Assembly (NCBI GenBank): GCA_963675595.2
Contig: CAXXLZ010000002.1
Location: 672,001-736,000, forward strand
Reading direction: 5' to 3'
Length of the DNA stretch: 64,000 nt
Source: Thermodesulfobacteriota bacterium
GTDB lineage: Bacteria; Desulfobacterota; Desulfarculia; JACQYL01
A program made the position numbers and the translations under genes. Below are positions 22,006 through 42,463 of this stretch, piece by piece. Positions within the stretch are counted from its first letter, which is position 1, and each line of letters opens with the position of its first letter. The notes under the pieces are model-generated. The model was given only the letters and a program-made list of their open reading frames with translations. It ran no database searches and had not been told where the DNA came from.

Positions 22006-23883
22006 ATGGCAAACATGGGTTTCAGGAAGAAACTGTTGCTCACCATTCTTCCTTTGGTGGCGATCACGGTGGGCGTGCTTGCCTTCGTATCCTATCGGAT
22101 TGCATCGAATGTCGTCTTGGAGCAACAAATGGTCACACTTACCCAGGTGGTCGACAAGTCGGCGATCGAGCTGGACGAGTGGCTGAACTACCGGGAAGAA
22201 GAAGTTGCGATTCTGAGTGAAACCGGGGTATTTCAAGCCGCCTGTGTGGGGAAACGGCTGGAGGAGGCGGAGAAACGCCTCCAGAAATATCACGCGATTG
22301 CTCCCGTCCACGAAAATATCTTCCTTGCGGACACGGCGGGGAAGATATTTATGGATTCCATCGGCGGGAAATCCGTGGGTATCGAAGTGGCCAAGATTCC
22401 GGGTTTCAAGATCAATGTCGACAAAGCGCAACTCGGAGAAATCTGGATCGGCACCGTCCTGAAATCCCCGGCCACCGGCCGACCCGTCTGTCTCATCACC
22501 GCCCCCGTGAAATTCGAGGGACGTTTCGTGGGCATTATCGGCACCCCGCTGGATTTGCTGACCTTCTCAAAGGATTTTCTGGAAAAGACTTCTCTGGGGG
22601 CGAGCGGATACTTGTTCATGGTGGATTCCACGGGTCTGGTCGCGGCCCATCCCAACAAAGACCTGATTCTGAAAACCAACATCCTGTCCTTTGATTTCGG
22701 TAAACCGATCATGGAACGCAAGAACGGAGCAATCGACTACCTCTGGAACGGAGAGGAAAAGACCGCCGTTTTCCGCACTTCGGACAAGACCGGCTGGATC
22801 ATTACCGGAACCGTCACCACGTCCGAGCTGCTGGCCCCCATCAGGAAGATCGGCTACATATCCGGCGTCCTGGGGCTGGGCGCCGTCATTCTCATCTCAC
22901 TGGTCACTTGGTGGATCACCGGAACTCTCTTCAAGATCGTCAACCGTGCGGTGGTAAAGCTGGACACCACCAGTGAGGAAGTGAAGCAGGCCGCAGAGCA
23001 AGTTTCCAGCTCCGGCCACTCTTTGGCCGAAGGGGCCTCGGAGCAGGCCGCCTCCGTTGAGGAAACCTCCGCCTCCATCGAAGAATTGACCTCCATGACC
23101 CGGAGGAACGCGGAAAACGCGGCCCAGGCCGGCGCCCTTTCCGGGGAAACCCTCAAGACCACGGTGAATTGCTCCGACTTGATGCAGGAAATGGCGGCAT
23201 CCATAGGGCAAGTCAACGAAGCCAGCGAAGAAACCCGCAAGATCGTCAAGACCATCGATGAAATCGCCTTTCAGACGAATCTACTGGCACTGAACGCGGC
23301 GGTGGAGGCCGCGAGGGCCGGTGAAGCGGGCGCCGGCTTCGCGGTGGTGGCCGGTGAGGTCCGCAATCTGGCCATGCGCGCGGCGGATGCCGCGAGAGAC
23401 ACCACGGACCAGATCGGTGATATTTCCGACAAAATCAACGAAGCCATGGGCAAGGTTTTCGGCGCCATAGACGAGTTCGGTAAAGTCTCGGAAAACACGG
23501 AAAAGGTAGACGGGTTGGTTAAGGAAATCGCCGCCGCTTCCGCTGAACAGGCCCAGGGGATCGACCAGATCGGTCGCGCCGTGACCGAATTGGACAAGAT
23601 CACCCAGCAAAACGCCTCCAACGCGGAGGAGTCCGCTGCTGCGGGTGAGGAGCTTAATGCACAAGCCGTCCAGATTCGGCAATTCGTCGAAACATTGAAC
23701 CGGGCGGTGACCGGCACCTCTCGCGGCGCAGACGCATCCACCCATATGGAATCGACAGGCGCGTCTTTCCACAAATACAAAGGAACCGTCGCGCCCAAGG
23801 TTCGATCCGCAAAGTCTAAGCCTTCCGAGGTGCCTCCGGAGAAGCTCATTCCTTTGGATGACGAAGACTTGCAGGACTTTTGA
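22006..23883 (+). CDS. Methyl-accepting chemotaxis protein with dCache sensor
   Basis: Two TM helices around a Cache domain (SPATGRPV, GYLFMVD, AAHP); signalling tip IAFQTNLLALNAAVEAARAGEAGAGFAVVA; C-terminal pentapeptide-like DLQDF; SD AGGAGG. Confidence 0.96.
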   Translation: MANMGFRKKLLLTILPLVAITVGVLAFVSYRIASNVVLEQQMVTLTQVVDKSAIELDEWLNYREEEVAILSETGVFQAACVGKRLEEAEKRLQKYHAIAPVHENIFLADTAGKIFMDSIGGKSVGIEVAKIPGFKINVDKAQLGEIWIGTVLKSPATGRPVCLITAPVKFEGRFVGIIGTPLDLLTFSKDFLEKTSLGASGYLFMVDSTGLVAAHPNKDLILKTNILSFDFGKPIMERKNGAIDYLWNGEEKTAVFRTSDKTGWIITGTVTTSELLAPIRKIGYISGVLGLGAVILISLVTWWITGTLFKIVNRAVVKLDTTSEEVKQAAEQVSSSGHSLAEGASEQAASVEETSASIEELTSMTRRNAENAAQAGALSGETLKTTVNCSDLMQEMAASIGQVNEASEETRKIVKTIDEIAFQTNLLALNAAVEAARAGEAGAGFAVVAGEVRNLAMRAADAARDTTDQIGDISDKINEAMGKVFGAIDEFGKVSENTEKVDGLVKEIAAASAEQAQGIDQIGRAVTELDKITQQNASNAEESAAAGEELNAQAVQIRQFVETLNRAVTGTSRGADASTHMESTGASFHKYKGTVAPKVRSAKSKPSEVPPEKLIPLDDEDLQDF

Positions 23884-24108
23884 ACATGGAGTTCAGGTCG
23901 GCCTCAAGCACGGCCGCCGAATGAAATGGCGGCAAGGAAGAACTCCGGGGGGCATGGGGTGCCCGGTTCGCCCTTTCCGCGAACCTTCATAGCCTTGACC
24001 GGTATTTCCAATAGGATGCACGACAACAATATGACTCTGTTGGGATAAATCGTTCGGAGGCAACGGAAGAATCCAACCATGAAGCCAACGAGAAAGGAGT
24101 CGGAAGGC

Positions 24109-24297
24109 ATGGGTGCACGATTGCTAAAGGCTTTCGAAGCGGCCAAAAAAGAGGGAGGATCACAGCTTGAGATGCGCTTGGCGATGAAATCGGCCATGAG
24201 CAGCAAGAAAGCTGCGGCGGAACCCGACAGTCCCGAAAATATCAGCAAGATGGAGACGGCCTTCAAAGAGGTCGCGGGCAAGGACATCAAGCTTTAG
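24109..24297 (+). CDS. Small (62 aa) helical hypothetical protein
   Basis: SD AAGGAG upstream; MGARLL...MRLAMKS...EPDSPENI; ends 13 bp before the next gene. Confidence 0.7.
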   Translation: MGARLLKAFEAAKKEGGSQLEMRLAMKSAMSSKKAAAEPDSPENISKMETAFKEVAGKDIKL

Positions 24298-24310
24298 GGA
24301 GGGAGAACCC

Positions 24311-24847
24311 ATGGCCATTGAAAAGCGACTGGAGTTTGAAATCGAGCACAAGTTCGATGCCAAGAACTCCCGCCATTTCCTCAACGGATTTTGCACGGTG
24401 CTTCATTGCCACCATTTTGCCACTTTGTACACCCAACTGGCCGATGACGCCAAGGATTTCCACGGTGAACGGCTGCTCAAGGAAGCTTCGGAAGACACTT
24501 TTTTTCACGTGCTCAGCGAGTACTTCTGCGCCAATAACATCACCGCCGTGGACGACATCGTATCCATTTCGGAGCAATACTGGAAAGCCGTAGGCATGGG
24601 CCTGATACGATTCACCGCGGTGGGCCCTTTTGCGGCGGCCGCCGAAATGGAATATTCACACGTGGACGAAGGATGGTTGAAGAAGTGGGGGAGCCGTGAG
24701 GAACCCGTGAATTTCATCACGTCGGGTTTCGTGGCCGCGGTGGCTTCACTGTGCAACGGAAAGCCCCCACGTGCCTACCAAGTGAGGGAGATTCAGAGCC
24801 TGGTTCGCGGGGACGCGGTATCCGCATTCAAAGCGGTGCTCCGCTGA
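24311..24847 (+). CDS. V4R/H-NOX-like fold protein with HCHH motif
   Basis: SD GGAGGGAG; VLHCHHF, W..VGMGLI, HVDEGW..KWG, PVNFITSGFVAA, and a V4R-like C-terminus VREIQSLVRGDAVSAF. Confidence 0.75.
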   Translation: MAIEKRLEFEIEHKFDAKNSRHFLNGFCTVLHCHHFATLYTQLADDAKDFHGERLLKEASEDTFFHVLSEYFCANNITAVDDIVSISEQYWKAVGMGLIRFTAVGPFAAAAEMEYSHVDEGWLKKWGSREEPVNFITSGFVAAVASLCNGKPPRAYQVREIQSLVRGDAVSAFKAVLR

Positions 24848-24909
24848 CCGACGAAAACCGAAGGACATCGGTCTGTTTCTATTTCCCTCAACAAGAAGGA
24901 GCGTATTCC

Positions 24910-25506
24910 ATGGCGATCGATCGCAAGAAAGTCATAGAGGCAATGTCCAAAGTCTCGGTCATCGGAGACGAGGAAGGCATGATTCGGGCGTTTGGCGTCT
25001 ATGTGCAGCAACTGCCGGCGGAATTCTGGAACTCTTTTGCTCGCCGGATCGTCAATTCGGTGCCGGAAGATTTGGTGGATGTGGCCGAGCAACTCCTGGT
25101 GAACGCCGGACATGAATGCGGATACCACACGGGTTACGGCATCATCACTTCGGAGGAATGGAAAAGTGTCGTCGGCCCCATGATTGAGAAGGAGCCGGAG
25201 GACATCCTCCATGGAGCCTTCGCGGTTTTCACCGCCTGGGGATGGGCGAAGTCGGAAATCGTCGAATTGGTGCCCAAAGAGAAGATGGTGGTCAGAGCCT
25301 ACAACTACTACGAAAGCGACATCGTCACCTACGGTAGAGCGTTGCGTCCCTGCGCCTACATGATCCGCGGCGTATCCGCGGCATTCATGGACCTTGCCTA
25401 CGGCGACAAGCCCTATCCCGACGGACTGAAAACCTTTGAATGTGTCCAAACCAAAGGGATCGAGGTCGGGGACGATTATGGTGAATTTGTCGTGACCCGA
25501 GCCTGA
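24910..25506 (+). CDS. V4R-like domain protein
   Basis: SD GAAGGAG before ATG 24910; AWGWAKSEIVEL, PCAYMIRGVSAAF and ECVQTKGIEVGDDYGEFVV match V4R topology. Confidence 0.78.
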   Translation: MAIDRKKVIEAMSKVSVIGDEEGMIRAFGVYVQQLPAEFWNSFARRIVNSVPEDLVDVAEQLLVNAGHECGYHTGYGIITSEEWKSVVGPMIEKEPEDILHGAFAVFTAWGWAKSEIVELVPKEKMVVRAYNYYESDIVTYGRALRPCAYMIRGVSAAFMDLAYGDKPYPDGLKTFECVQTKGIEVGDDYGEFVVTRA

Positions 25507-25543
25507 AGTCTTCAACGGCCGCAGCCGCGATAGGCATTAGGAC

Positions 25544-25569
25544 CCGGGCGCCCGACCGTCGGCGCCCGG
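25544..25569 (+). terminator. Hairpin after the V4R operon
   Basis: CCGGGCGCC-N8-GGCGCCCGG. Confidence 0.45.
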
Positions 25570-25769
25570 AAGTCCTCCATCCTCGTTCTCAGGGCCGCCC
25601 CGGCTCTTCTTCGCAAACAGACATAGACACAAACTGATCTCCCCTCCAAATGCTCCTTCGCTTCCTTGCCGACAAAAGTCCGGCGTGATATTCTACTTAG
25701 TATAATATCGAGTCCCGCAAGAATCCGACAACAACCATTTCGCAGCCCACACTCGAAGAAGGACTTGAG

Positions 25770-26246
25770 ATGAGAAACCGAAGCATTGTTCTCTTGGCGG
25801 TGGCGGCCACTTGGTTGATTTGCGGCGTCGCTCGGGCCGGAGAAGAAACCATTCAGGTCACAGCCGGGAAAAACCTCCAACCCGTGGCCGTGGAGAACGG
25901 AACCTTCATCCAAGAAGTCTATACCGGGACGGCCCCCTCCGGAGAAGATTTTCTCAACTACGAGGCAAAAAACTATTTCAGCGCGGGTGAACAAGTTCCC
26001 ATTTACGCCCGCTACCGCTTGGAGGGAGACGGGGGCGACTGCACGCCATACCTGCGCGTATCCAACGGCGTCGGCACGGTGGTGGATTTCATCCCCATCA
26101 GCGGGACCCGTTCGGGGTTTCTCACTGCCCCATCCACTCACCGGAATTATGCACCGGGCGCCTACATCATCAACGCGGTGGTTTTGGGACCGGTAAGTAA
26201 CGGCATGTCCGCCCCTCCTTTCGTGTTCACAGTGGATTTGGAATAA
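25770..26246 (+). CDS. Secreted hypothetical beta-rich protein
   Basis: SD GAAGGA; signal peptide ending VARA; alternating beta-strand pattern. Confidence 0.7.
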   Translation: MRNRSIVLLAVAATWLICGVARAGEETIQVTAGKNLQPVAVENGTFIQEVYTGTAPSGEDFLNYEAKNYFSAGEQVPIYARYRLEGDGGDCTPYLRVSNGVGTVVDFIPISGTRSGFLTAPSTHRNYAPGAYIINAVVLGPVSNGMSAPPFVFTVDLE

Positions 26247-26481
26247 GATTTCTTTTCAGGGTTCCCCAAGAGCCGTCATCAACGAGAACTTTCGAGAGGC
26301 GATCCACGATTCGACCGCCCTTCACGCTCTCCCATGCGTGGATGTCGATTATCACCTCGGTGGAGAACGGATCGCCCCATATGCTTGGGCCATGGCGTCC
26401 GAAATCAAGTCGGTCTTGACAAAACTCAACTAATGAAGCCACTAGATTGGTTGCAAAATGGATGTTGAACGGGGGCACGAA

Positions 26482-28974
26482 ATGGCTTCAAGTCCGGCCG
26501 AACCCGGGGATGCTTCTTCGACCTCCCTGGGAAAAGCGCGAGAACGGATACAAGAGCTTGAGACTCTCCTGGAAGAACGGGAAAGGACCGTCCAGGAGTA
26601 CGCTCTGACGCGCTCACTCCTGGACTCTTTCCCTCAAGGCGTCGGATACAAGGATCGGGACGGAGTTTTCAGGCTGGTAAACAAGGCCTTTTGCGATTTC
26701 ATGGGGAAAACACAGGAAGAGATCCTGGGAAAGACCGATCGCGACCTGTTTCCCCAGTCCGAAGCGGATTTCTACCGTCGCCAAGACCTGGATATCATGC
26801 AATCGCGGACGCCCATCGTCCAAAACCAGAAAATCACGGGCAAAGGTGGGCCGGCGTGGAGGCGGGTAATGAAATCGCCCTTGCTCTTCGGCGGGAAAAT
26901 TCAGGGAATTCGATTTCTCCTGAATGATATCTCCCAAGAGACACGCATGGACAGCGTCCTCCTCAAACTGGCCGAGGGGGTTTCCGCGGCCACCGGCAAG
27001 GATTACTTGGCGGCGCTCGTGAAAAGCATGGGAGAAATCCTGGAGGCGGATTTCGCCTTTGTGGGCGAGTTATTGTACCAAACCACCAGAAGGATCCGGA
27101 CGGTTGCTCTGTACGCCGACGGCTCCATCGTCGACAATTTCGAATACGACCTGGAGGACACGCCCTGCGAAAACGTAGTCCGCGGGGAAAGCTGCGTTTA
27201 TGAAAAAGACGTACAGACGCTTTTCCCCAAAGACCGCCTTTTGGTTGAAATGGGAGTCGAATCCTACGCCGGTATTCCGCTGTTCAGTTCTTCCGGAGAT
27301 TTCCTGGGCATCCTGGTGGTGCTGTACCGACATCCCACTGCGGATTCGCCCCTCATCGAGTCTCTCTTGCAGATTTTCGCAGGTAGAGCCGCCTCCGAAC
27401 TGGAACGCGAAACATCCCAAGAACGACTGCGCAACTCCGAACAGGAAAAAACCGCCATTCTCGAGAGTTTCCGCGATGTGATCGTGGAGTATCTCGACAA
27501 GGATATGAACATCATATGGACCAATAACCTGGATACCAAGACCAGCCTCGCCAAGGTGACCGGCCGGCGTTGCTACGAGGTTCGACACGCTCTCCGCCAA
27601 CCCTGTTCGGGCTGCCGGGTTCCCCTGGCCCTTAAAACCGGGCTGCCCACGGAAGGGGAAATGATCTCCCCACAGGGGGCCGTGCTGCTCACCCGGAGCA
27701 ATCCGATCCTCAATGCCCAAGGAGAAGTGACCGGTGTGGTGCACGTGGCCCTGGACATCACCGCCCGAAAGATGATGGAGCAGGAACTCCTGGCGGCGAA
27801 AGAGGCCGCGGAAGAAGCCAACCACGCAAAAAGCCGGTTCCTGGCCACCATGAGCCATGAGATTCGAACCCCGATGAACGCCATTTTGGGTTTCACGGGC
27901 CTGTGTCTCGAAATGGAACTCGCTCCCCTTCAGAAAGAGTATCTGGAACTCGTCAACTCTTCCGCCAAGGACCTCCTCGCCCTCCTCAACGATATCCTGG
28001 ACCTTTCCAGAATCGAAGCGGGCAAGCTCAGGATCGAGAAGCAGGAATTCAGTCTCCTACAGACCTTATCCGAGGTGGTGGACCTCTTCGCCTTGAAAGC
28101 GAAACTAAAAGGCCTTGACTTCCAATTCACCGTGGATCCGGCCACGCCCGAAATCGTTATCGGAGACGAAAGTCGGGTTCGGCAGGTGCTCGCCAACCTC
28201 ATAAGCAACGCGGTTAAATTTACTGAATCGGGGAATGTCCGGGTTTATGCCGCCGATTGCCGTCAGGGACCCGGGAAAGCCATCCTGCATTTCGTGGTGT
28301 CGGATACGGGATGCGGCATTCCGGAAGACAAACAATCGGAAATTTTCGATCCGTTCACCCAGGTAGATGGGGACAAGACCAGGAAACACGGCGGCGCAGG
28401 TTTGGGCCTGGCCATCTGCAAACAACTCGTTCGGTTGATGGACGGGGAAATCTGGGTCACCAGCAAACCCGGGTTGGGTAGCACTTTCGATTTCACCCTT
28501 CCCTTCGAACTTCCCGGCCCGGAGTTCCTCGCCATGGGAGAACCCGCATCGCCCCCTCTGTTCTCAAACGGCACCATGGATGAACCTTGTCGGCACTTGA
28601 AGATACTCTTGGTGGAAGACGACGAGCGGAATTTGATCCTCGCGCAACGGCTACTGGAGCGCGGGTGCCACTCGGTGACCACTGTCCGCAACGGTAGGGA
28701 GGCGGCGGACGTCGCATCCGACGGCCTTTTCGATCTCATCCTCATGGACCTGGAAATGCCCGAAATGGACGGCTTCGAGGCCGCCGAACGCATCAGGAAG
28801 GCGGAAAAAGGCTCATCGCGCCATGTTCCCATCATCGCCATGACCGCCCACGCCATGAAAGGCTACCGGGAACGGTGTCTGGAGGCGGGTATGGACGACT
28901 ATATCACCAAGCCCGTGGACCCATCGGAACTCAACCGTGTCATCCAACGGGCTTTATGCGTGCCCGGCCCTTAA
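26482..28974 (+). CDS. Cytoplasmic PAS-GAF-PAS hybrid histidine kinase
   Basis: FLATMSHEIRTPMN, NLISNAVKFT, DTGCGI, GAGLGL, receiver DLILMDLEMP. Start 26482 or 26458. Confidence 0.95.
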   Translation: MASSPAEPGDASSTSLGKARERIQELETLLEERERTVQEYALTRSLLDSFPQGVGYKDRDGVFRLVNKAFCDFMGKTQEEILGKTDRDLFPQSEADFYRRQDLDIMQSRTPIVQNQKITGKGGPAWRRVMKSPLLFGGKIQGIRFLLNDISQETRMDSVLLKLAEGVSAATGKDYLAALVKSMGEILEADFAFVGELLYQTTRRIRTVALYADGSIVDNFEYDLEDTPCENVVRGESCVYEKDVQTLFPKDRLLVEMGVESYAGIPLFSSSGDFLGILVVLYRHPTADSPLIESLLQIFAGRAASELERETSQERLRNSEQEKTAILESFRDVIVEYLDKDMNIIWTNNLDTKTSLAKVTGRRCYEVRHALRQPCSGCRVPLALKTGLPTEGEMISPQGAVLLTRSNPILNAQGEVTGVVHVALDITARKMMEQELLAAKEAAEEANHAKSRFLATMSHEIRTPMNAILGFTGLCLEMELAPLQKEYLELVNSSAKDLLALLNDILDLSRIEAGKLRIEKQEFSLLQTLSEVVDLFALKAKLKGLDFQFTVDPATPEIVIGDESRVRQVLANLISNAVKFTESGNVRVYAADCRQGPGKAILHFVVSDTGCGIPEDKQSEIFDPFTQVDGDKTRKHGGAGLGLAICKQLVRLMDGEIWVTSKPGLGSTFDFTLPFELPGPEFLAMGEPASPPLFSNGTMDEPCRHLKILLVEDDERNLILAQRLLERGCHSVTTVRNGREAADVASDGLFDLILMDLEMPEMDGFEAAERIRKAEKGSSRHVPIIAMTAHAMKGYRERCLEAGMDDYITKPVDPSELNRVIQRALCVPGP

Positions 28975-29163: not shown

Positions 29164-29964
29164 ATGCACGACGACTCCTTCCGATCACTTCTGGAACTCC
29201 TGGGACTCTCTTGGCAAGGATACCGCAAGGTGAGGCGAGGGGTGAAGAAGCGGATCTCACGCCACATGTCTCAGCAGGGCTGCCGCGGCACGCGGGAATA
29301 CCTGGAGCTGCTGAAGGCCGATGCCGGGTTCCGAAAAGAGTGCGAAGCGCTCATGGGAGTTTCCATCAGCCGTTTCTTTCGGGACCGGGAGCTCTGGGAG
29401 ACACTGGAAGGGAAAATTCCGCCCGAGCCGGCGGCGAGCTCCGGAAGCGAAATCAAGGCTTGGTCCGCAGGGTGCGCACGTGGGGAAGAGGCCTACAGTC
29501 TGAAAATCCTGTGGGACCGGATACGCCGATCCGGCGTCGGCCTTCCCGCCCTTCGCATAACGGCCACGGACATCAACCCGGACTACCTCCAGGCGGCTCA
29601 ACTAGCCCGCTACACCTGGAGCGCGTTGAGGGAACTTCCCCCTGATTCGGCACAACGTTGTTTCGAGCAGGAACCCGGCGGAAGATGGTTCCGGTTGGTC
29701 CAAGATTTGAGAGGGGAGATTGAGTGGCTTTGCCGTGACTTCTTCGCCACGCCGCCCGGCTCCGGATTCCATCTCATTTTCCTGAGGAACAACCTGCTCA
29801 CCTATTACTCACGCGACCGCGTCGGGCCCGCTTTCAACACTATCTTGAACGCCCTTGCCGTTGGCGGCTTTCTCGTGCTCGGTTCCCGCGAGCATCCGCC
29901 CTTTCATCATCCGGCCCTGCGTCCGTCGGCCGGCCTTCCATACTTGTTTGAAAGGCTGCCGTGA
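29164..29964 (+). CDS. cheR: CheR-family SAM-dependent methyltransferase
   Basis: SRFFRD, WSAGCARGEEAYSL, ATDIN and IFLRNNLLTYY motifs. Confidence 0.88.
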   Translation: MHDDSFRSLLELLGLSWQGYRKVRRGVKKRISRHMSQQGCRGTREYLELLKADAGFRKECEALMGVSISRFFRDRELWETLEGKIPPEPAASSGSEIKAWSAGCARGEEAYSLKILWDRIRRSGVGLPALRITATDINPDYLQAAQLARYTWSALRELPPDSAQRCFEQEPGGRWFRLVQDLRGEIEWLCRDFFATPPGSGFHLIFLRNNLLTYYSRDRVGPAFNTILNALAVGGFLVLGSREHPPFHHPALRPSAGLPYLFERLP

Positions 29965-30500
29965 CCATGACCCAAATACCAACAAGAAAGAATCTCCTGT
30001 TCACCGGACCGCCCGGTTGCGGCAAATCCACCCTCATCGAAAAGATCGTCCGGAAAGTGGATCGACCGTGCGCCGGATTCTTCACGCGGGAAATCAGGGA
30101 TCGGGGACGTCGCGCGGGATTCGCCGTCCACACCCTTGACGGGAAACGGGGCATCCCGGCTCACGTGGATTCCTCAAGTCGGATCAAGGTGGGAAAATAC
30201 GCCGTCAACCTGCAGGACGTGGACCACATTGCCGTGCCGTCCCTGATTCCGGAAAATGATCGAATCCTCGTGGTGGTGGACGAAATCGGCAAGATGGAAT
30301 GTTTCTCCCCCCGGTTCCGACAAACCCTGCTGCAGGTTCTGGATTCACCCAACCCGGTGCTGGGCTCCGTGGCCCTCAAGGGAGACGCCTTCATTCAGGG
30401 GGTGAAGAAGCGCGCGGATACGGAGGTGGTCCTGGTCAGTGAGCAAAACAGGGATGCGTTGGCGGAGGTGTATTTTCGGAACGTAGGGGAGGACGGGTAG
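29961..30500 (+). CDS. Nucleoside-triphosphatase (THEP1/NTPase_1 family)
   Basis: TGPPGCGKST, GFFTREIR, KVGKYAV and VVDEIGKME motifs. Start GTG 29961 or ATG 29967. Confidence 0.92.
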   Translation: MTMTQIPTRKNLLFTGPPGCGKSTLIEKIVRKVDRPCAGFFTREIRDRGRRAGFAVHTLDGKRGIPAHVDSSSRIKVGKYAVNLQDVDHIAVPSLIPENDRILVVVDEIGKMECFSPRFRQTLLQVLDSPNPVLGSVALKGDAFIQGVKKRADTEVVLVSEQNRDALAEVYFRNVGEDG

Positions 30501-40585: not shown

Positions 40586-42463
40586 TGATGCCGTCGTAAG
40601 AACCCCCCTTTACGAACAGGGCTGTTTTTTGGAGCATTGGAAGTTCAAGCGGCCATTGCAACACTGCCAAGGTTACTGTCATCGTGACATAGGCTACAAA
40701 GACGACGGAAATTATCGTTGCTGCCTCCCTCTATCGAGTTGGAAAGGGCCTTCTTGGCCTTATCAAGGCGGCTCTGGACGAACCTCTTGATGTTGATGGC
40801 CAGGGCCTTCATGAAAACAGATAAGGTGACCCGTTTTTTGCCTCGGGTCCACGATCGTTTCAATCCCGTGACCCGATCCGCTTCGGAGATGGTGGCCTCG
40901 ATGCCGGACCGGATTTTGTAGCGTTCTTTGAAATCATGGCTTTCCTGCTGTAGTCTGCGCTTGGAGGTCGCCATGTCCTTGCGCTTGTACTTCAGTCGAT
41001 AATTTCCGCCCTTGATCCGTTTTACCGGACAGATGGGGAGAAATTCGCATAGGAGACAGTGCTCGCGGGAAAACACGGCTTCCACCGCTTTGCCGCGGTC
41101 AACGATCTTGCATTCAAGTGGCGCGTGCCCCCGGATACAGTAAACGACCTGGGTGCAGTCCTCGTTCGTTTCAAAGTCACTCAACTGCATCTTATTGAGA
41201 TCCGGCGCTTTTCCGCAAGTCACCGGAGCGGTAAGCTCGACTCCGTGCTCGTGAGCTTGAAGGATGTTCTCGCCGCTGCCGTAGCCTGCGTCGGCGAACA
41301 ACTCTTCGGGTTTGCGGCCCGTTTCCTCCAGGCGTTCGATAACGGGCATCACGTCTTTCTGGTCGCTGTCATAGGAAGGGGCCACGTCCACATCGGTGAT
41401 CACCTGGAAGGGATTTTCCTTCACGCAGGTCTCCGTGAGGGAAGCCTTATATCCTTTGCCCTTGCGCCCATAGGTGGCGTCGGGATCCGAAGGATTCTGC
41501 AGGGAGTCCGCAGGGATTTCCTTGGGCTTCTCGAGTTCTGTTTTGTCGGGATCTCCCTCGGTGAAACGGCATTGCTCCGACAGTAGTCGGGCCATCAGCC
41601 GGTATTCTTTCATTCGGCTGATTTCCGGATGACCTCGGAAGCGGTCCACCAGGTCGGCGAGATGGCGGGCGGACTTGTCCAGACGACGCTTGGCCCGCGA
41701 TGATTTTGCATCGGCAAAATAGCCTGCGCGCTTCAAGTAGGCCTTGTCGTAAAGTCGGGGCAGTTTCTCATACAACTTGGGATGTTTCTTATGGAGCCGT
41801 TTCAAGAACGCCTCGATGGTGCGCGTAAAGAGCCCCAGACGGCTCAGATGAGCCATGTTGGAAGTGATCTGTGTGGAGTCCAACCGCTGTTTGTCCGTGC
41901 TAAGGGCCGCCGTCTCGATGATGGCGTCCGTGATTCCGGTAAAGAGGCTCCGCGCTTGCTTGTTGTCGGTAATCAAGGTCCGGAAATTGTGCAGGGTCTT
42001 CTGGCAGACGTGAGATTCAAAGGCGTTGATGTTGAAGGCATATTGCCAACGCAGATCGAAGTCCAGAGCGCCCAAGACTTCCGCATCGGTCAGGCTGTTC
42101 ATTTCCTTCAAAACACACGCTCCGACAAGGATGGCCACGGGTCTGTTGGGCCTGCCGTTGTCCTCACAGTAGAAAGGCCGGAAAGACTCCTCATCGATCA
42201 TGGGAAGCACCAGGCGCCGGAACGGACCGGCCCACGTCTTCTCCAACGCCTCGATCCTGTCTGCGGGAAGGCAAATATCGTGGTCGAAAATGGTCTTTTG
42301 CGTTCTCTTAGGCCGAAACAAAACAACCCCCCTAAGGACCATATTATTAATCAAGTCAGATACTTATCATACAGGACCCAAAAGAAAGGTCAACCCATAA
42401 ATGCCATTTTTATTCATATTTTCAACTAGATACCTTTACGGAGAGGTTTTTACGAACTCATCA
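40586..42463 (-). mobile_element. IS1182-like insertion sequence (about 1.88 kb)
   Basis: Imperfect terminal IRs TGATGCCGTCGTAAGAACC (40586-40604) and TGATGAGTTCGTAAAAACC (reverse complement of 42445-42463), 15/19 identical, flanking the transposase; no clear target duplication. Confidence 0.8.
40645..42354 (-). CDS. DDE transposase (IS1182-like, DUF772 plus DDE_Tnp_1_6 type)
   Basis: YCEDNGRP, QRLDSTQI, QNPSDPDATY..K.KGYK, ADAGYGS and YKIRSGIEATIS. The real start may be TTG near 42321. Confidence 0.92.
   Translation of the reverse strand: MINNMVLRGVVLFRPKRTQKTIFDHDICLPADRIEALEKTWAGPFRRLVLPMIDEESFRPFYCEDNGRPNRPVAILVGACVLKEMNSLTDAEVLGALDFDLRWQYAFNINAFESHVCQKTLHNFRTLITDNKQARSLFTGITDAIIETAALSTDKQRLDSTQITSNMAHLSRLGLFTRTIEAFLKRLHKKHPKLYEKLPRLYDKAYLKRAGYFADAKSSRAKRRLDKSARHLADLVDRFRGHPEISRMKEYRLMARLLSEQCRFTEGDPDKTELEKPKEIPADSLQNPSDPDATYGRKGKGYKASLTETCVKENPFQVITDVDVAPSYDSDQKDVMPVIERLEETGRKPEELFADAGYGSGENILQAHEHGVELTAPVTCGKAPDLNKMQLSDFETNEDCTQVVYCIRGHAPLECKIVDRGKAVEAVFSREHCLLCEFLPICPVKRIKGGNYRLKYKRKDMATSKRRLQQESHDFKERYKIRSGIEATISEADRVTGLKRSWTRGKKRVTLSVFMKALAINIKRFVQSRLDKAKKALSNSIEGGSNDNFRRLCSLCHDDSNLGSVAMAA

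Follow-up and report, generated by a model that had tools for sequence, protein, structure and literature searches.

The phenol-sensing domains of PoxR, MopR and DmpR, the closest described relatives of the proteins considered here, dimerise through N-terminal segments and hold zinc in a Cys/Glu/Cys/Cys site; in V4R domains the cysteines of a C-terminal E-x2-C-x3-G-x3-C motif bind the metal. Most chemoreceptors of anaerobes lack a known signal, and many lack any sensor domain. Here we describe a module of three genes, A, B and C, in a stretch of 64,000 nucleotides from a Thermodesulfobacteriota bacterium (contig CAXXLZ010000002.1, positions 672,001 to 736,000; hereafter the window), where it lies downstream of a gene for a methyl-accepting chemotaxis protein (MCP). 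An earlier note, made from the sequence alone, had read B and C as atypical V4R-like proteins forming a heterodimeric metal, heme or small-molecule sensor with the 62-aa protein A as adaptor, possibly feeding the adjacent MCP, CheR or hybrid kinase. Fold, heterodimer, motifs and MCP linkage have withstood the analysis, while heme and the linkage to CheR, kinase or GTPase genes have not. We tentatively favour, at slightly less than an even chance, the interpretation that A-B-C is a cytoplasmic sensor with a Cys/His centre between B and C, probably iron-sulfur, which would feed chemoreceptors as part of a two-part receptor.

The AlphaFold2 (AF2) model of B reached a predicted local distance difference test score (pLDDT) of 93.3, and that of C alone 78.9, its first 36 residues being disordered. 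Foldseek searches of the PDB placed the phenol-sensing domains of PoxR, MopR and DmpR at the top for both proteins (E 1e-7 to 1e-9), the best match being PoxR for B (5frw_A, E 3.5e-9, TM-score 0.76, root-mean-square deviation 3.0 over 172 columns) and MopR for C (5kbh_A, E 9.8e-8, TM-score 0.67). Lower matches comprised Bet3/TRAPPC3 (TM-score 0.5-0.55), BcsD, H-NOX and the V4R protein MJ1460 (2osd, 2oso; E 7e-4 to 2e-3). BLASTP detected no similarity between B and C, but in hhalign the final 58 columns of the two align (probability 88%, E 2.9e-6); together with the Foldseek matches, this C-terminal homology bears out the V4R-like fold that the earlier note had suspected for both. At the level of sequence families, A, B and C matched nothing in Pfam (E up to 1) or NCBIfam, the gathering score of V4R (PF02830) was not reached, and a search of the PDB with the profiles A1 and A2 gave nothing usable, one match at E 1.2 being rejected. 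The lone NCBIfam line, to argininosuccinate lyase with E 0.034 and 13 bits where 388 are required, was dismissed as noise. Two distant relatives in which B and C are fused do pass Pfam V4R, P0250 with 56 and P0252 with 52.7 bits (cut-off 31), and a distant two-halves family of 410-455 aa passes the model too. P0250 retains the HCHH motif of B; in NCBIfam the distant fused relatives show only weak similarity, to the V4R part of MsvR (E 7.7e-7 to 8.7e-4). Because these fused relatives pass the Pfam model and B and C do not, B and C are outlying paralogues of the V4R superfamily, outside the Pfam model itself. The stretch that reads E-x2-C-x3-G-x3-C in P0250 is E160-x2-S163-x3-G167-x3-S171 in B and, in the hhalign register, Q180-x2-G183-x3-G187-x3-G191 in C, so that the missing terminal Cys pair is confirmed, with Ser in B and Gly in C at the aligned positions.

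Database relatives are numerous and the order A-B-C is kept, and A, B and C are therefore real genes rather than chance open reading frames (ORFs). The protein collection held 1613 relatives of C (more than 1600 protein clusters), the best 120 of which are 70-100% identical and all annotated as hypothetical, and 251 relatives of B, a few of them named 'predicted hydrocarbon binding protein' by the Joint Genome Institute (JGI). Among 185,579 species-level genomes (one genome per species) 252 C-encoding loci were found, and 80 were kept for all locus counts given below. These loci are spread over many bacterial and several archaeal phyla, including metagenome-assembled genomes (MAGs) labelled Thermoplasmatales, Woesearchaeota and Methanospirillum. 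By tblastn, B lies directly upstream of C in all 80 (34-66% identity) and A upstream of B in 72 (29-71% identity), with three further cases recognised by eye; three of the remaining misses fall at the end of a contig, and no A is visible in L016 and L031. The trio thus co-occurs as the earlier note had expected. Since the identity of C is 61-81% across phyla and into Archaea, against the lower ranges for B and A, C is, judged by these alignments, under much stronger constraint than either partner. Phyla mix freely on the tree of B and C (B+C tree), which suggests that the module has spread horizontally and repeatedly. On the same tree Methanospirillum branches together with a MAG of the Bacteroidales, and one MAG each of Acetobacteraceae and Fibrobacteria falls among Acidobacteriota and Thermodesulfobacteriota, respectively.

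The conserved positions are concentrated in short motifs. B keeps H22, N25, H32-C33-H34-H35, S116-H117-x-D119, W122, K125 and W126 without exception, and C keeps E69-C70-G71-Y72-x-T74-G75, T108-A109-W110-G111-W112 and Y133-Y134-E135, along with the aromatics W40 and Y190. The HCHH and ECGYH motifs singled out from the window alone are therefore conserved features, as seen in the alignments of B, of C and of the fused relatives. For A the consensus is MG.KL...GG..QMRLAMKT..PS.KA...PDSPENI.KF..A.KEITGK.

Several lines point to a pairing of B with C. Twelve longer relatives (387-455 aa) were found, and P0241-P0247 (387-405 aa), from some lineages, are natural B-C fusions: P0243 shares 57% identity with B over the N-terminal half, and a search with C matched the same protein at 64% identity over 98% of the C sequence. 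One locus carries B and C in a single frame (L075:556-1734), and in many of the 275 representative C relatives, 387-430 aa in length, the C-like part makes up the second half. When A, B and C were modelled together, with C as the scored partner, each of three runs gave an ipSAE of 0.94, compared with 0.00 for the best of three controls, and the 200 contacts agreed between runs to at least 97%, with a partner pLDDT of at least 91. In the calibration of the tool, 116 of the 157 solved complexes and 2 of the 215 mismatched pairs score as high; the present model differs from that set in using its own alignments and three chains. In the complex the pLDDT of C rises from 78.9 to 92, and its N-terminus, disordered when C is modelled alone, becomes ordered and part of the interface. 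Given the natural fusions and the score of the complex, B and C are predicted to form a heterodimer, in agreement with the earlier note, the fusions being computed and the pairing modelled. Residues 18-34 of A also lie at an interface in this model, with A25 touching C58, which supports the proposed role of the 62-aa protein as a third member of the predicted complex.

The invariant motifs of both proteins appear at the modelled interface. On the side of B the interface list comprises residues 27-37, which include H32-C33-H34-H35, together with 114-115 and 117; on the side of C it comprises 69-71 and 73-74 (ECGYHT), 108-114 (TAWGW), 132 and 134. Contacts between antiparallel helices are listed for B43 with C62/63, B39/40 with C62-66, and B36 with C66. 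In 66 fused relatives the best-kept residues of the B half are H32 (93%), C33 (90%), H35 (87%) and H117 (92%), and those of the C half are C70 (95%), T74 (98%), Y134 (90%) and E135 (100%), and S81 and W84 of the C half likewise reach at least 87%. Such a set of two Cys, three His and a Glu, drawn from the two subunits together, is the signature of a metal or cluster site.

Clustering of the flanking ORFs from all 80 loci revealed two further partners, which suggest a link to sulfur mobilisation in most loci. A class-V aminotransferase adjoins the trio in 54 of the 80, and all five representatives of it match TIGR01977, 'cysteine desulfurase family' (E 3.6e-77 to 2.5e-122), only one of the five passing the curated cut-off (408.6 against 377 bits); the next NCBIfam matches are SclA, SufS, NifS and CsdA. 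A protein of about 95 aa without a known family, here called X95, adjoins the trio in 60 loci. It has a single Cys, Cys12, which is invariant in 25 of 25 aligned sequences, as are Pro50 and Gly64, and it is probably a persulfide carrier. In the ESM Atlas X95 has no named family, and a loose likeness of its fold to a domain of PAPS-reductase/ferredoxin proteins (TM-score 0.6-0.7) is a lead only. The commonest gene order is desulfurase, X95, A, B, C, and the cultured Aliikangiella maris GXAS 306 (L072) possesses the full MCP-desulfurase-X95-A-B-C array. In Pfam and NCBIfam none of A, B, C and X95 corresponds to a scaffold family of the ISC, SUF or NIF type, and none matches a PADLOC model. The matches of the desulfurase to SspA and DndA reflect merely membership of the same enzyme family. 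A DUF3034 protein occurs in seven of the 80 loci (L013:4239-5150, L015, L022, L023, L025, L043, L049), either between X95 and A or between MCP and desulfurase. Homologues of the desulfurase, X95 and DUF3034 were not found in the window, which belongs to a well-supported clade of 16 rows of the B+C tree, mostly Thermodesulfobacteriota, without desulfurase and X95; the earlier note, made from the window, therefore missed these usual partners.

Chemoreceptors are the other recurrent neighbours. An MCP signalling domain is found nearby in 34 of the 80 loci, co-oriented with the module in 31 and within 3 kb in 30; these counts rest on the flanks that were fetched, which were complete for 46 loci, 22 of them with an MCP. 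The presence of a neighbouring MCP switches at least 20 times across the B+C tree, and the linkage therefore does not go back to a single inherited arrangement. The domain make-up of 26 partner MCPs was determined with Pfam: 12 have MCPsignal alone, five have only HAMP besides it, and PAS, CZB and dCache_1 are added in six, two and one, respectively. Many of the bare receptors have only a short N-terminal transmembrane (TM) hairpin. Genes for soluble proteins beside an MCP that lacks a ligand domain, the arrangement of a bipartite receptor, are thus seen at other loci, and the window MCP itself has a dCache_1 domain. Histidine kinase signalling is touched as well: C is immediately followed by CheA in L002 (after 41 bp) and L053 (after 146 bp), and hybrid histidine kinases directly precede X95 in L069 and L073. 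Linkage to the MCP, as proposed from the window, is in this way a computed feature of many loci, but that to CheR, present in a single locus of the 80, and to the hybrid kinase, whose matches are generic, did not hold up; the NTPase of the window has no counterpart in any of the 80. A scan by family of 121 of the 291 flanking ORFs, all from L001-L034, found no other family in more than four of them, and no recurrent roadblock or GTPase gene (RsgA_GTPase in 2 of 121), so that the roadblock/GTPase linkage raised in the earlier note was not seen in this neighbourhood survey.

In eight of the 80 loci the MCP carries a PAS domain with the cysteine pattern C-x7/8-C-x4-C (L003:7443-7787, L020, L027, L028, L039, L046, L077, L079). 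Identity among these tri-Cys PAS MCPs is 42-54%, in a set that spans distant phyla and an archaeon, and the six closest (L003, L027, L039, L046, L077, L079) share a GH(I/V)E motif. The domain has no PDB relative by sequence. Its Cys span equals that of the [4Fe-4S] PAS domain of OrpR, whose cysteines are C52, C61 and C65 (PMC8359166), and by this analogy the tri-Cys PAS MCPs are candidate iron-sulfur chemoreceptors.

We therefore picture the module as follows. A, B and C would form a soluble cytoplasmic complex, in which the divergent V4R paralogues B and C make a heterodimer that is obligate and held together by the N-terminal strands and the first long helix of each, and A sits on C. The V4R zinc site has been lost in both proteins, and a new composite site would have arisen at the interface, formed by His32, Cys33, His35 and His117 of B and by Cys70 and Tyr134/Glu135 of C. 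Because the module in most of its versions brings a cysteine desulfurase of its own and the single-Cys X95, we infer that this site holds a metal centre needing mobilised sulfur, most likely an iron-sulfur cluster; the lineage of the window, which has neither gene, would have to draw on housekeeping enzymes. The complex would then change with the state of this centre, be it redox potential, O2, NO or iron-sulfur status, and we infer that the complex signals to the neighbouring transducer, usually a chemoreceptor and sometimes a histidine kinase. In the window the likely transducer partner is the MCP. A wider proposition is possible but doubtful: that A-B-C is the core of a new, horizontally moving class of cytoplasmic inputs to chemoreceptor arrays and kinases, with a V4R heterodimer whose Cys and His from both sides bind an inter-subunit iron-sulfur or other sulfur-derived cluster, and with its own desulfurase and X95, a new persulfide carrier, for maturation; it would offer anaerobes a common means of steering by redox state or O2.

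A number of observations weigh against the sensor interpretation. The window has neither desulfurase nor X95, so that the sulfur argument rests on other lineages, and its MCP has a dCache_1 sensor of its own. No MCP was present in the fetched flanks of 46 of the 80 loci, including 24 of the 46 with full flanks, and one MAG with the module (L076) is labelled Woesearchaeota, a group which to our knowledge lacks chemotaxis, although its binning may be wrong. The strong conservation of C is unusual for ligand sensors and closer to that of a scaffold or an enzyme. True sensor domains usually occur fused somewhere, and no fusion that joins B or C to an output domain, whether MCP, kinase or another, was seen, the best 150 of the 275 representatives being at most 455 aa long; such fusions are also absent from the 12 longer relatives, and with no Pfam match to Sigma54_activat, B and C are not fused to an AAA+ sigma-54 activator. 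The passing score of the complex model may owe something to structures already solved, namely PoxR and MopR homodimers and Bet3 heterodimers, and the putative proximity of Cys33 of B to Cys70 of C is an extrapolation from the listed contact pairs.

The main rival, which we consider unlikely, is a dedicated machine for cofactor assembly and delivery, in which desulfurase and X95 would mobilise sulfur, B/C would be the scaffold for building an iron-sulfur or other sulfur-containing centre and A an accessory, and the cluster would be handed to client sensors, for instance the tri-Cys PAS chemoreceptors. It would account for the desulfurase and X95 in 54 and 60 of the loci, the scaffold-like conservation of C, the lack of output-domain fusions among the best 150 representatives, and the eight tri-Cys PAS MCPs with their OrpR-like (PMC8359166) cysteine span. 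Most partner MCPs, however, cannot be clients, the Cys count being zero in L002 and one each in L004, L006, L011 and L072; the 16-row clade that includes the window keeps A-B-C without desulfurase or X95, and Pfam and NCBIfam reveal no similarity to IscU, SufU, NifU or A-type carriers. Somewhat less probable than assembly is a small-molecule sensor like PoxR and MopR, in which an organic ligand, be it aromatic, hydrophobic or a metabolite, would occupy a pocket of B/C and no cluster would be present, the desulfurase link being metabolic, for example as a report on cysteine or persulfide. The best structural matches are indeed phenol-binding sensor domains, the JGI name given to some B relatives points the same way, and the invariant aromatics of C (W40, W110, W112, Y133, Y134, Y190) could line a pocket. 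Against this, the best-kept residues are Cys, His and Glu of the interface rather than a pocket buried in a single subunit, ligand sensors usually diverge fast and C does not, and the linkage to desulfurase and X95 is too consistent to be incidental.

Two further explanations seem to us very improbable. The first would place the proteins outside signalling, as an enzyme or metabolic complex or as a TRAPP-like GTPase regulator, the MCP neighbours being coincidental or regulatory targets; high conservation, missing output-domain fusions and the Bet3/TRAPPC3 matches (TM-score 0.5-0.55) are compatible with it. The MCP in 34 of 80 loci, gained or lost at least 20 times on the tree, and the CheA genes at two loci argue for signalling instead, and neither a recurrent GTPase or roadblock neighbour (RsgA_GTPase in 2 of 121 flanking ORFs) nor a counterpart of the window NTPase in any of the 80 loci was found. 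The least probable in our view is a heme-based or other gas sensor of the H-NOX kind, in which a conserved His would ligate heme. The heme pocket of H-NOX is built from a proximal His and a Y-x-S-x-R motif. H-NOX 6dxi does occur among the Foldseek matches of C (E 8.4e-5), B has several invariant His, and the carriers come from anoxic habitats, judged by record titles; yet H-NOX structures give a TM-score of only 0.40-0.45, where PoxR and MopR give 0.67-0.76, the Y-x-S-x-R motif was not seen by eye in the alignments of B and C, and heme needs no cysteine desulfurase. Nothing points to the heme that the earlier note had allowed for.

The sensor that we favour would be encoded in the window as listed in Table 1. 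The coordinates, sequence strings, motifs, spacing, Shine-Dalgarno (SD) stretches, the 225-bp distance and the shared strand with the dCache_1 MCP were all re-read as the earlier note had given them. Purine-rich SD-like stretches precede the three start codons (AAAGGAG, GGGAGGGAG and GAAGGAG), and the genes are separated by 13 bp (A-B) and 62 bp (B-C). For A, the start at ATG 24109 is preferred over the in-frame ATG 24079 because homologues begin MG.KL; for C, the mechanical ORF opens at GTG 24751, but ATG 24910 is the start because every homologue begins MAIDR. HCHH occupies residues 32-35 of B, which ends in VREIQSLVRGDAVSAF, while HECGYHTG and ECVQTKGIEVGDDYGEF are residues 68-75 and 177-193 of C. 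None of the three proteins has a TM-like segment; the two of the window MCP lie at residues 7 and 279, and the N-terminal 330 aa of this receptor are 42% identical to a module-adjacent MCP from a Latescibacterota MAG (L065). A promoter and terminator scan of the trio region gave counts within shuffle expectation, which carries no information on operon structure, and Rfam had zero matches in 23500-26500. The GC content of the trio is 0.549 against 0.564 for the window, and base composition thus gives no hint of a recent import.

Table 1. Features in and around the A-B-C module, with positions counted from the first nucleotide of the window.
Feature	Position	Strand	Description and evidence
MCP, 625 aa	22006..23883	+	Pfam MCPsignal (3.3e-38) and dCache_1 (3e-21); periplasmic dCache_1, two TM-like segments
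Spacer between MCP and gene A, 225 bp	23884..24108	+	no promoter- or terminator-like site, no Rfam match
Gene A, 62 aa	24109..24297	+	soluble, helical, without Cys or His; tblastn, homologue consensus
Gene B, 178 aa	24311..24847	+	divergent V4R fold; AF2, Foldseek, conservation
Gene C, 198 aa	24910..25506	+	divergent V4R fold, most conserved part; AF2, Foldseek, 1613 relatives
158-aa ORF between C and kinase	25770..26246		hydrophobic N-terminus (maximal 19-aa hydropathy 1.98), without Pfam family
Hybrid histidine kinase	26458..28974		PAS, GAF, PAS_4, HisKA, HATPase_c, REC
CheR methyltransferase with THEP1-type NTPase_1	29164..30500		NTPase_1 at 29961..30500; 4-bp overlap
DDE transposase gene	40648..42354		DDE_Tnp_1_6, DUF772; about 15 kb downstream of the trio

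Further genes of the window were noted in passing. The 158-aa ORF behind C has no counterpart in the 80 related loci. The hybrid kinase contains a Cys-rich C-x10-C-x2-C stretch between GAF and HisKA, where Pfam reports a second PAS_4 stretch, and from its sequence this could be a candidate metal or cluster site. The pairing of CheR with the overlapping NTPase is unusual. Signalling genes are abundant elsewhere in the window, including PAS kinases, a sigma-54 activator and an EAL-HDOD protein.

Neither the V4R fold nor the concept of a chemoreceptor in two parts is new, whereas the protein family, A, X95, the inter-subunit site and the five-gene layout are absent from Pfam, NCBIfam and PADLOC. 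The searchable literature, which excludes subscription journals, likewise yielded no description of the module, A, X95, the inter-subunit site or the five-gene layout, no linkage of V4R to a cysteine desulfurase, and nothing on the module under COG1719 or 'predicted hydrocarbon binding protein', so that the absence of a characterised system with such a layout, assumed in the earlier note, still stands. Searches by title or abstract for 4-vinyl reductase together with chemotaxis gave nothing relevant; V4R with chemoreceptors led only to PYP-V4R fusions, and V4R with iron-sulfur to OrpR work that mentions V4R in passing only. If the module is a sensor, it would provide input for some of the sensor-less chemoreceptors of anaerobes, and would be the first example of a two-part chemoreceptor built on V4R, with a dedicated cysteine desulfurase put to a new use; a scaffold function would instead make it a new system of cofactor assembly.

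Among described systems, the sensor domains of PoxR, MopR and DmpR (XylR_N plus V4R; 5fru, 5kbe, 6iy8) have their fold in common with B and C over nearly the full length (TM-score 0.67-0.76), and B and C are modelled to pair likewise, via N-terminal segments. They are, however, the N-terminal parts of sigma-54 activators and form homodimers with a zinc site and a phenol pocket, whereas B and C are standalone or fused only to each other, have lost the zinc cysteines, and would place a set of Cys, His and Glu between two different subunits. Bet3/TRAPPC3 belongs to a common fold class, and members of the Bet3 family act as homo- or heterodimers of paralogues (PMC2253512), but the TM-score is only 0.5-0.55 and B/C have no recurrent GTPase or roadblock partners among the flanking ORFs scanned. 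MsvR of methanogens resembles B/C in its V4R domain, the cysteines of which confer redox sensitivity (PMC3729527); it is a homodimeric DNA-binding protein, whereas B and C have no DNA-binding domain and another set of Cys. The pre-PcyA and slr0144-slr0149 clusters (PMC10151467), compared by description, resemble the B/C pair in having side-by-side V4R paralogues of distinct clades along with an iron-sulfur protein, although their partners, in the parts of that source considered, are globins, a bilin reductase and a heme oxygenase rather than an MCP, a desulfurase, A or X95. In gene layout the nearest parallel is CetA/CetB (PMC12442639), where the gene of a soluble sensor lies beside that of an MCP without a ligand domain and both proteins jointly make up the receptor; the layout is alike here for the 12 of 26 partner MCPs that have MCPsignal only; yet CetB, as described there, is a single PAS protein binding flavin adenine dinucleotide (FAD), while the candidate sensor of the present module is a three-protein V4R complex, often accompanied by a desulfurase.

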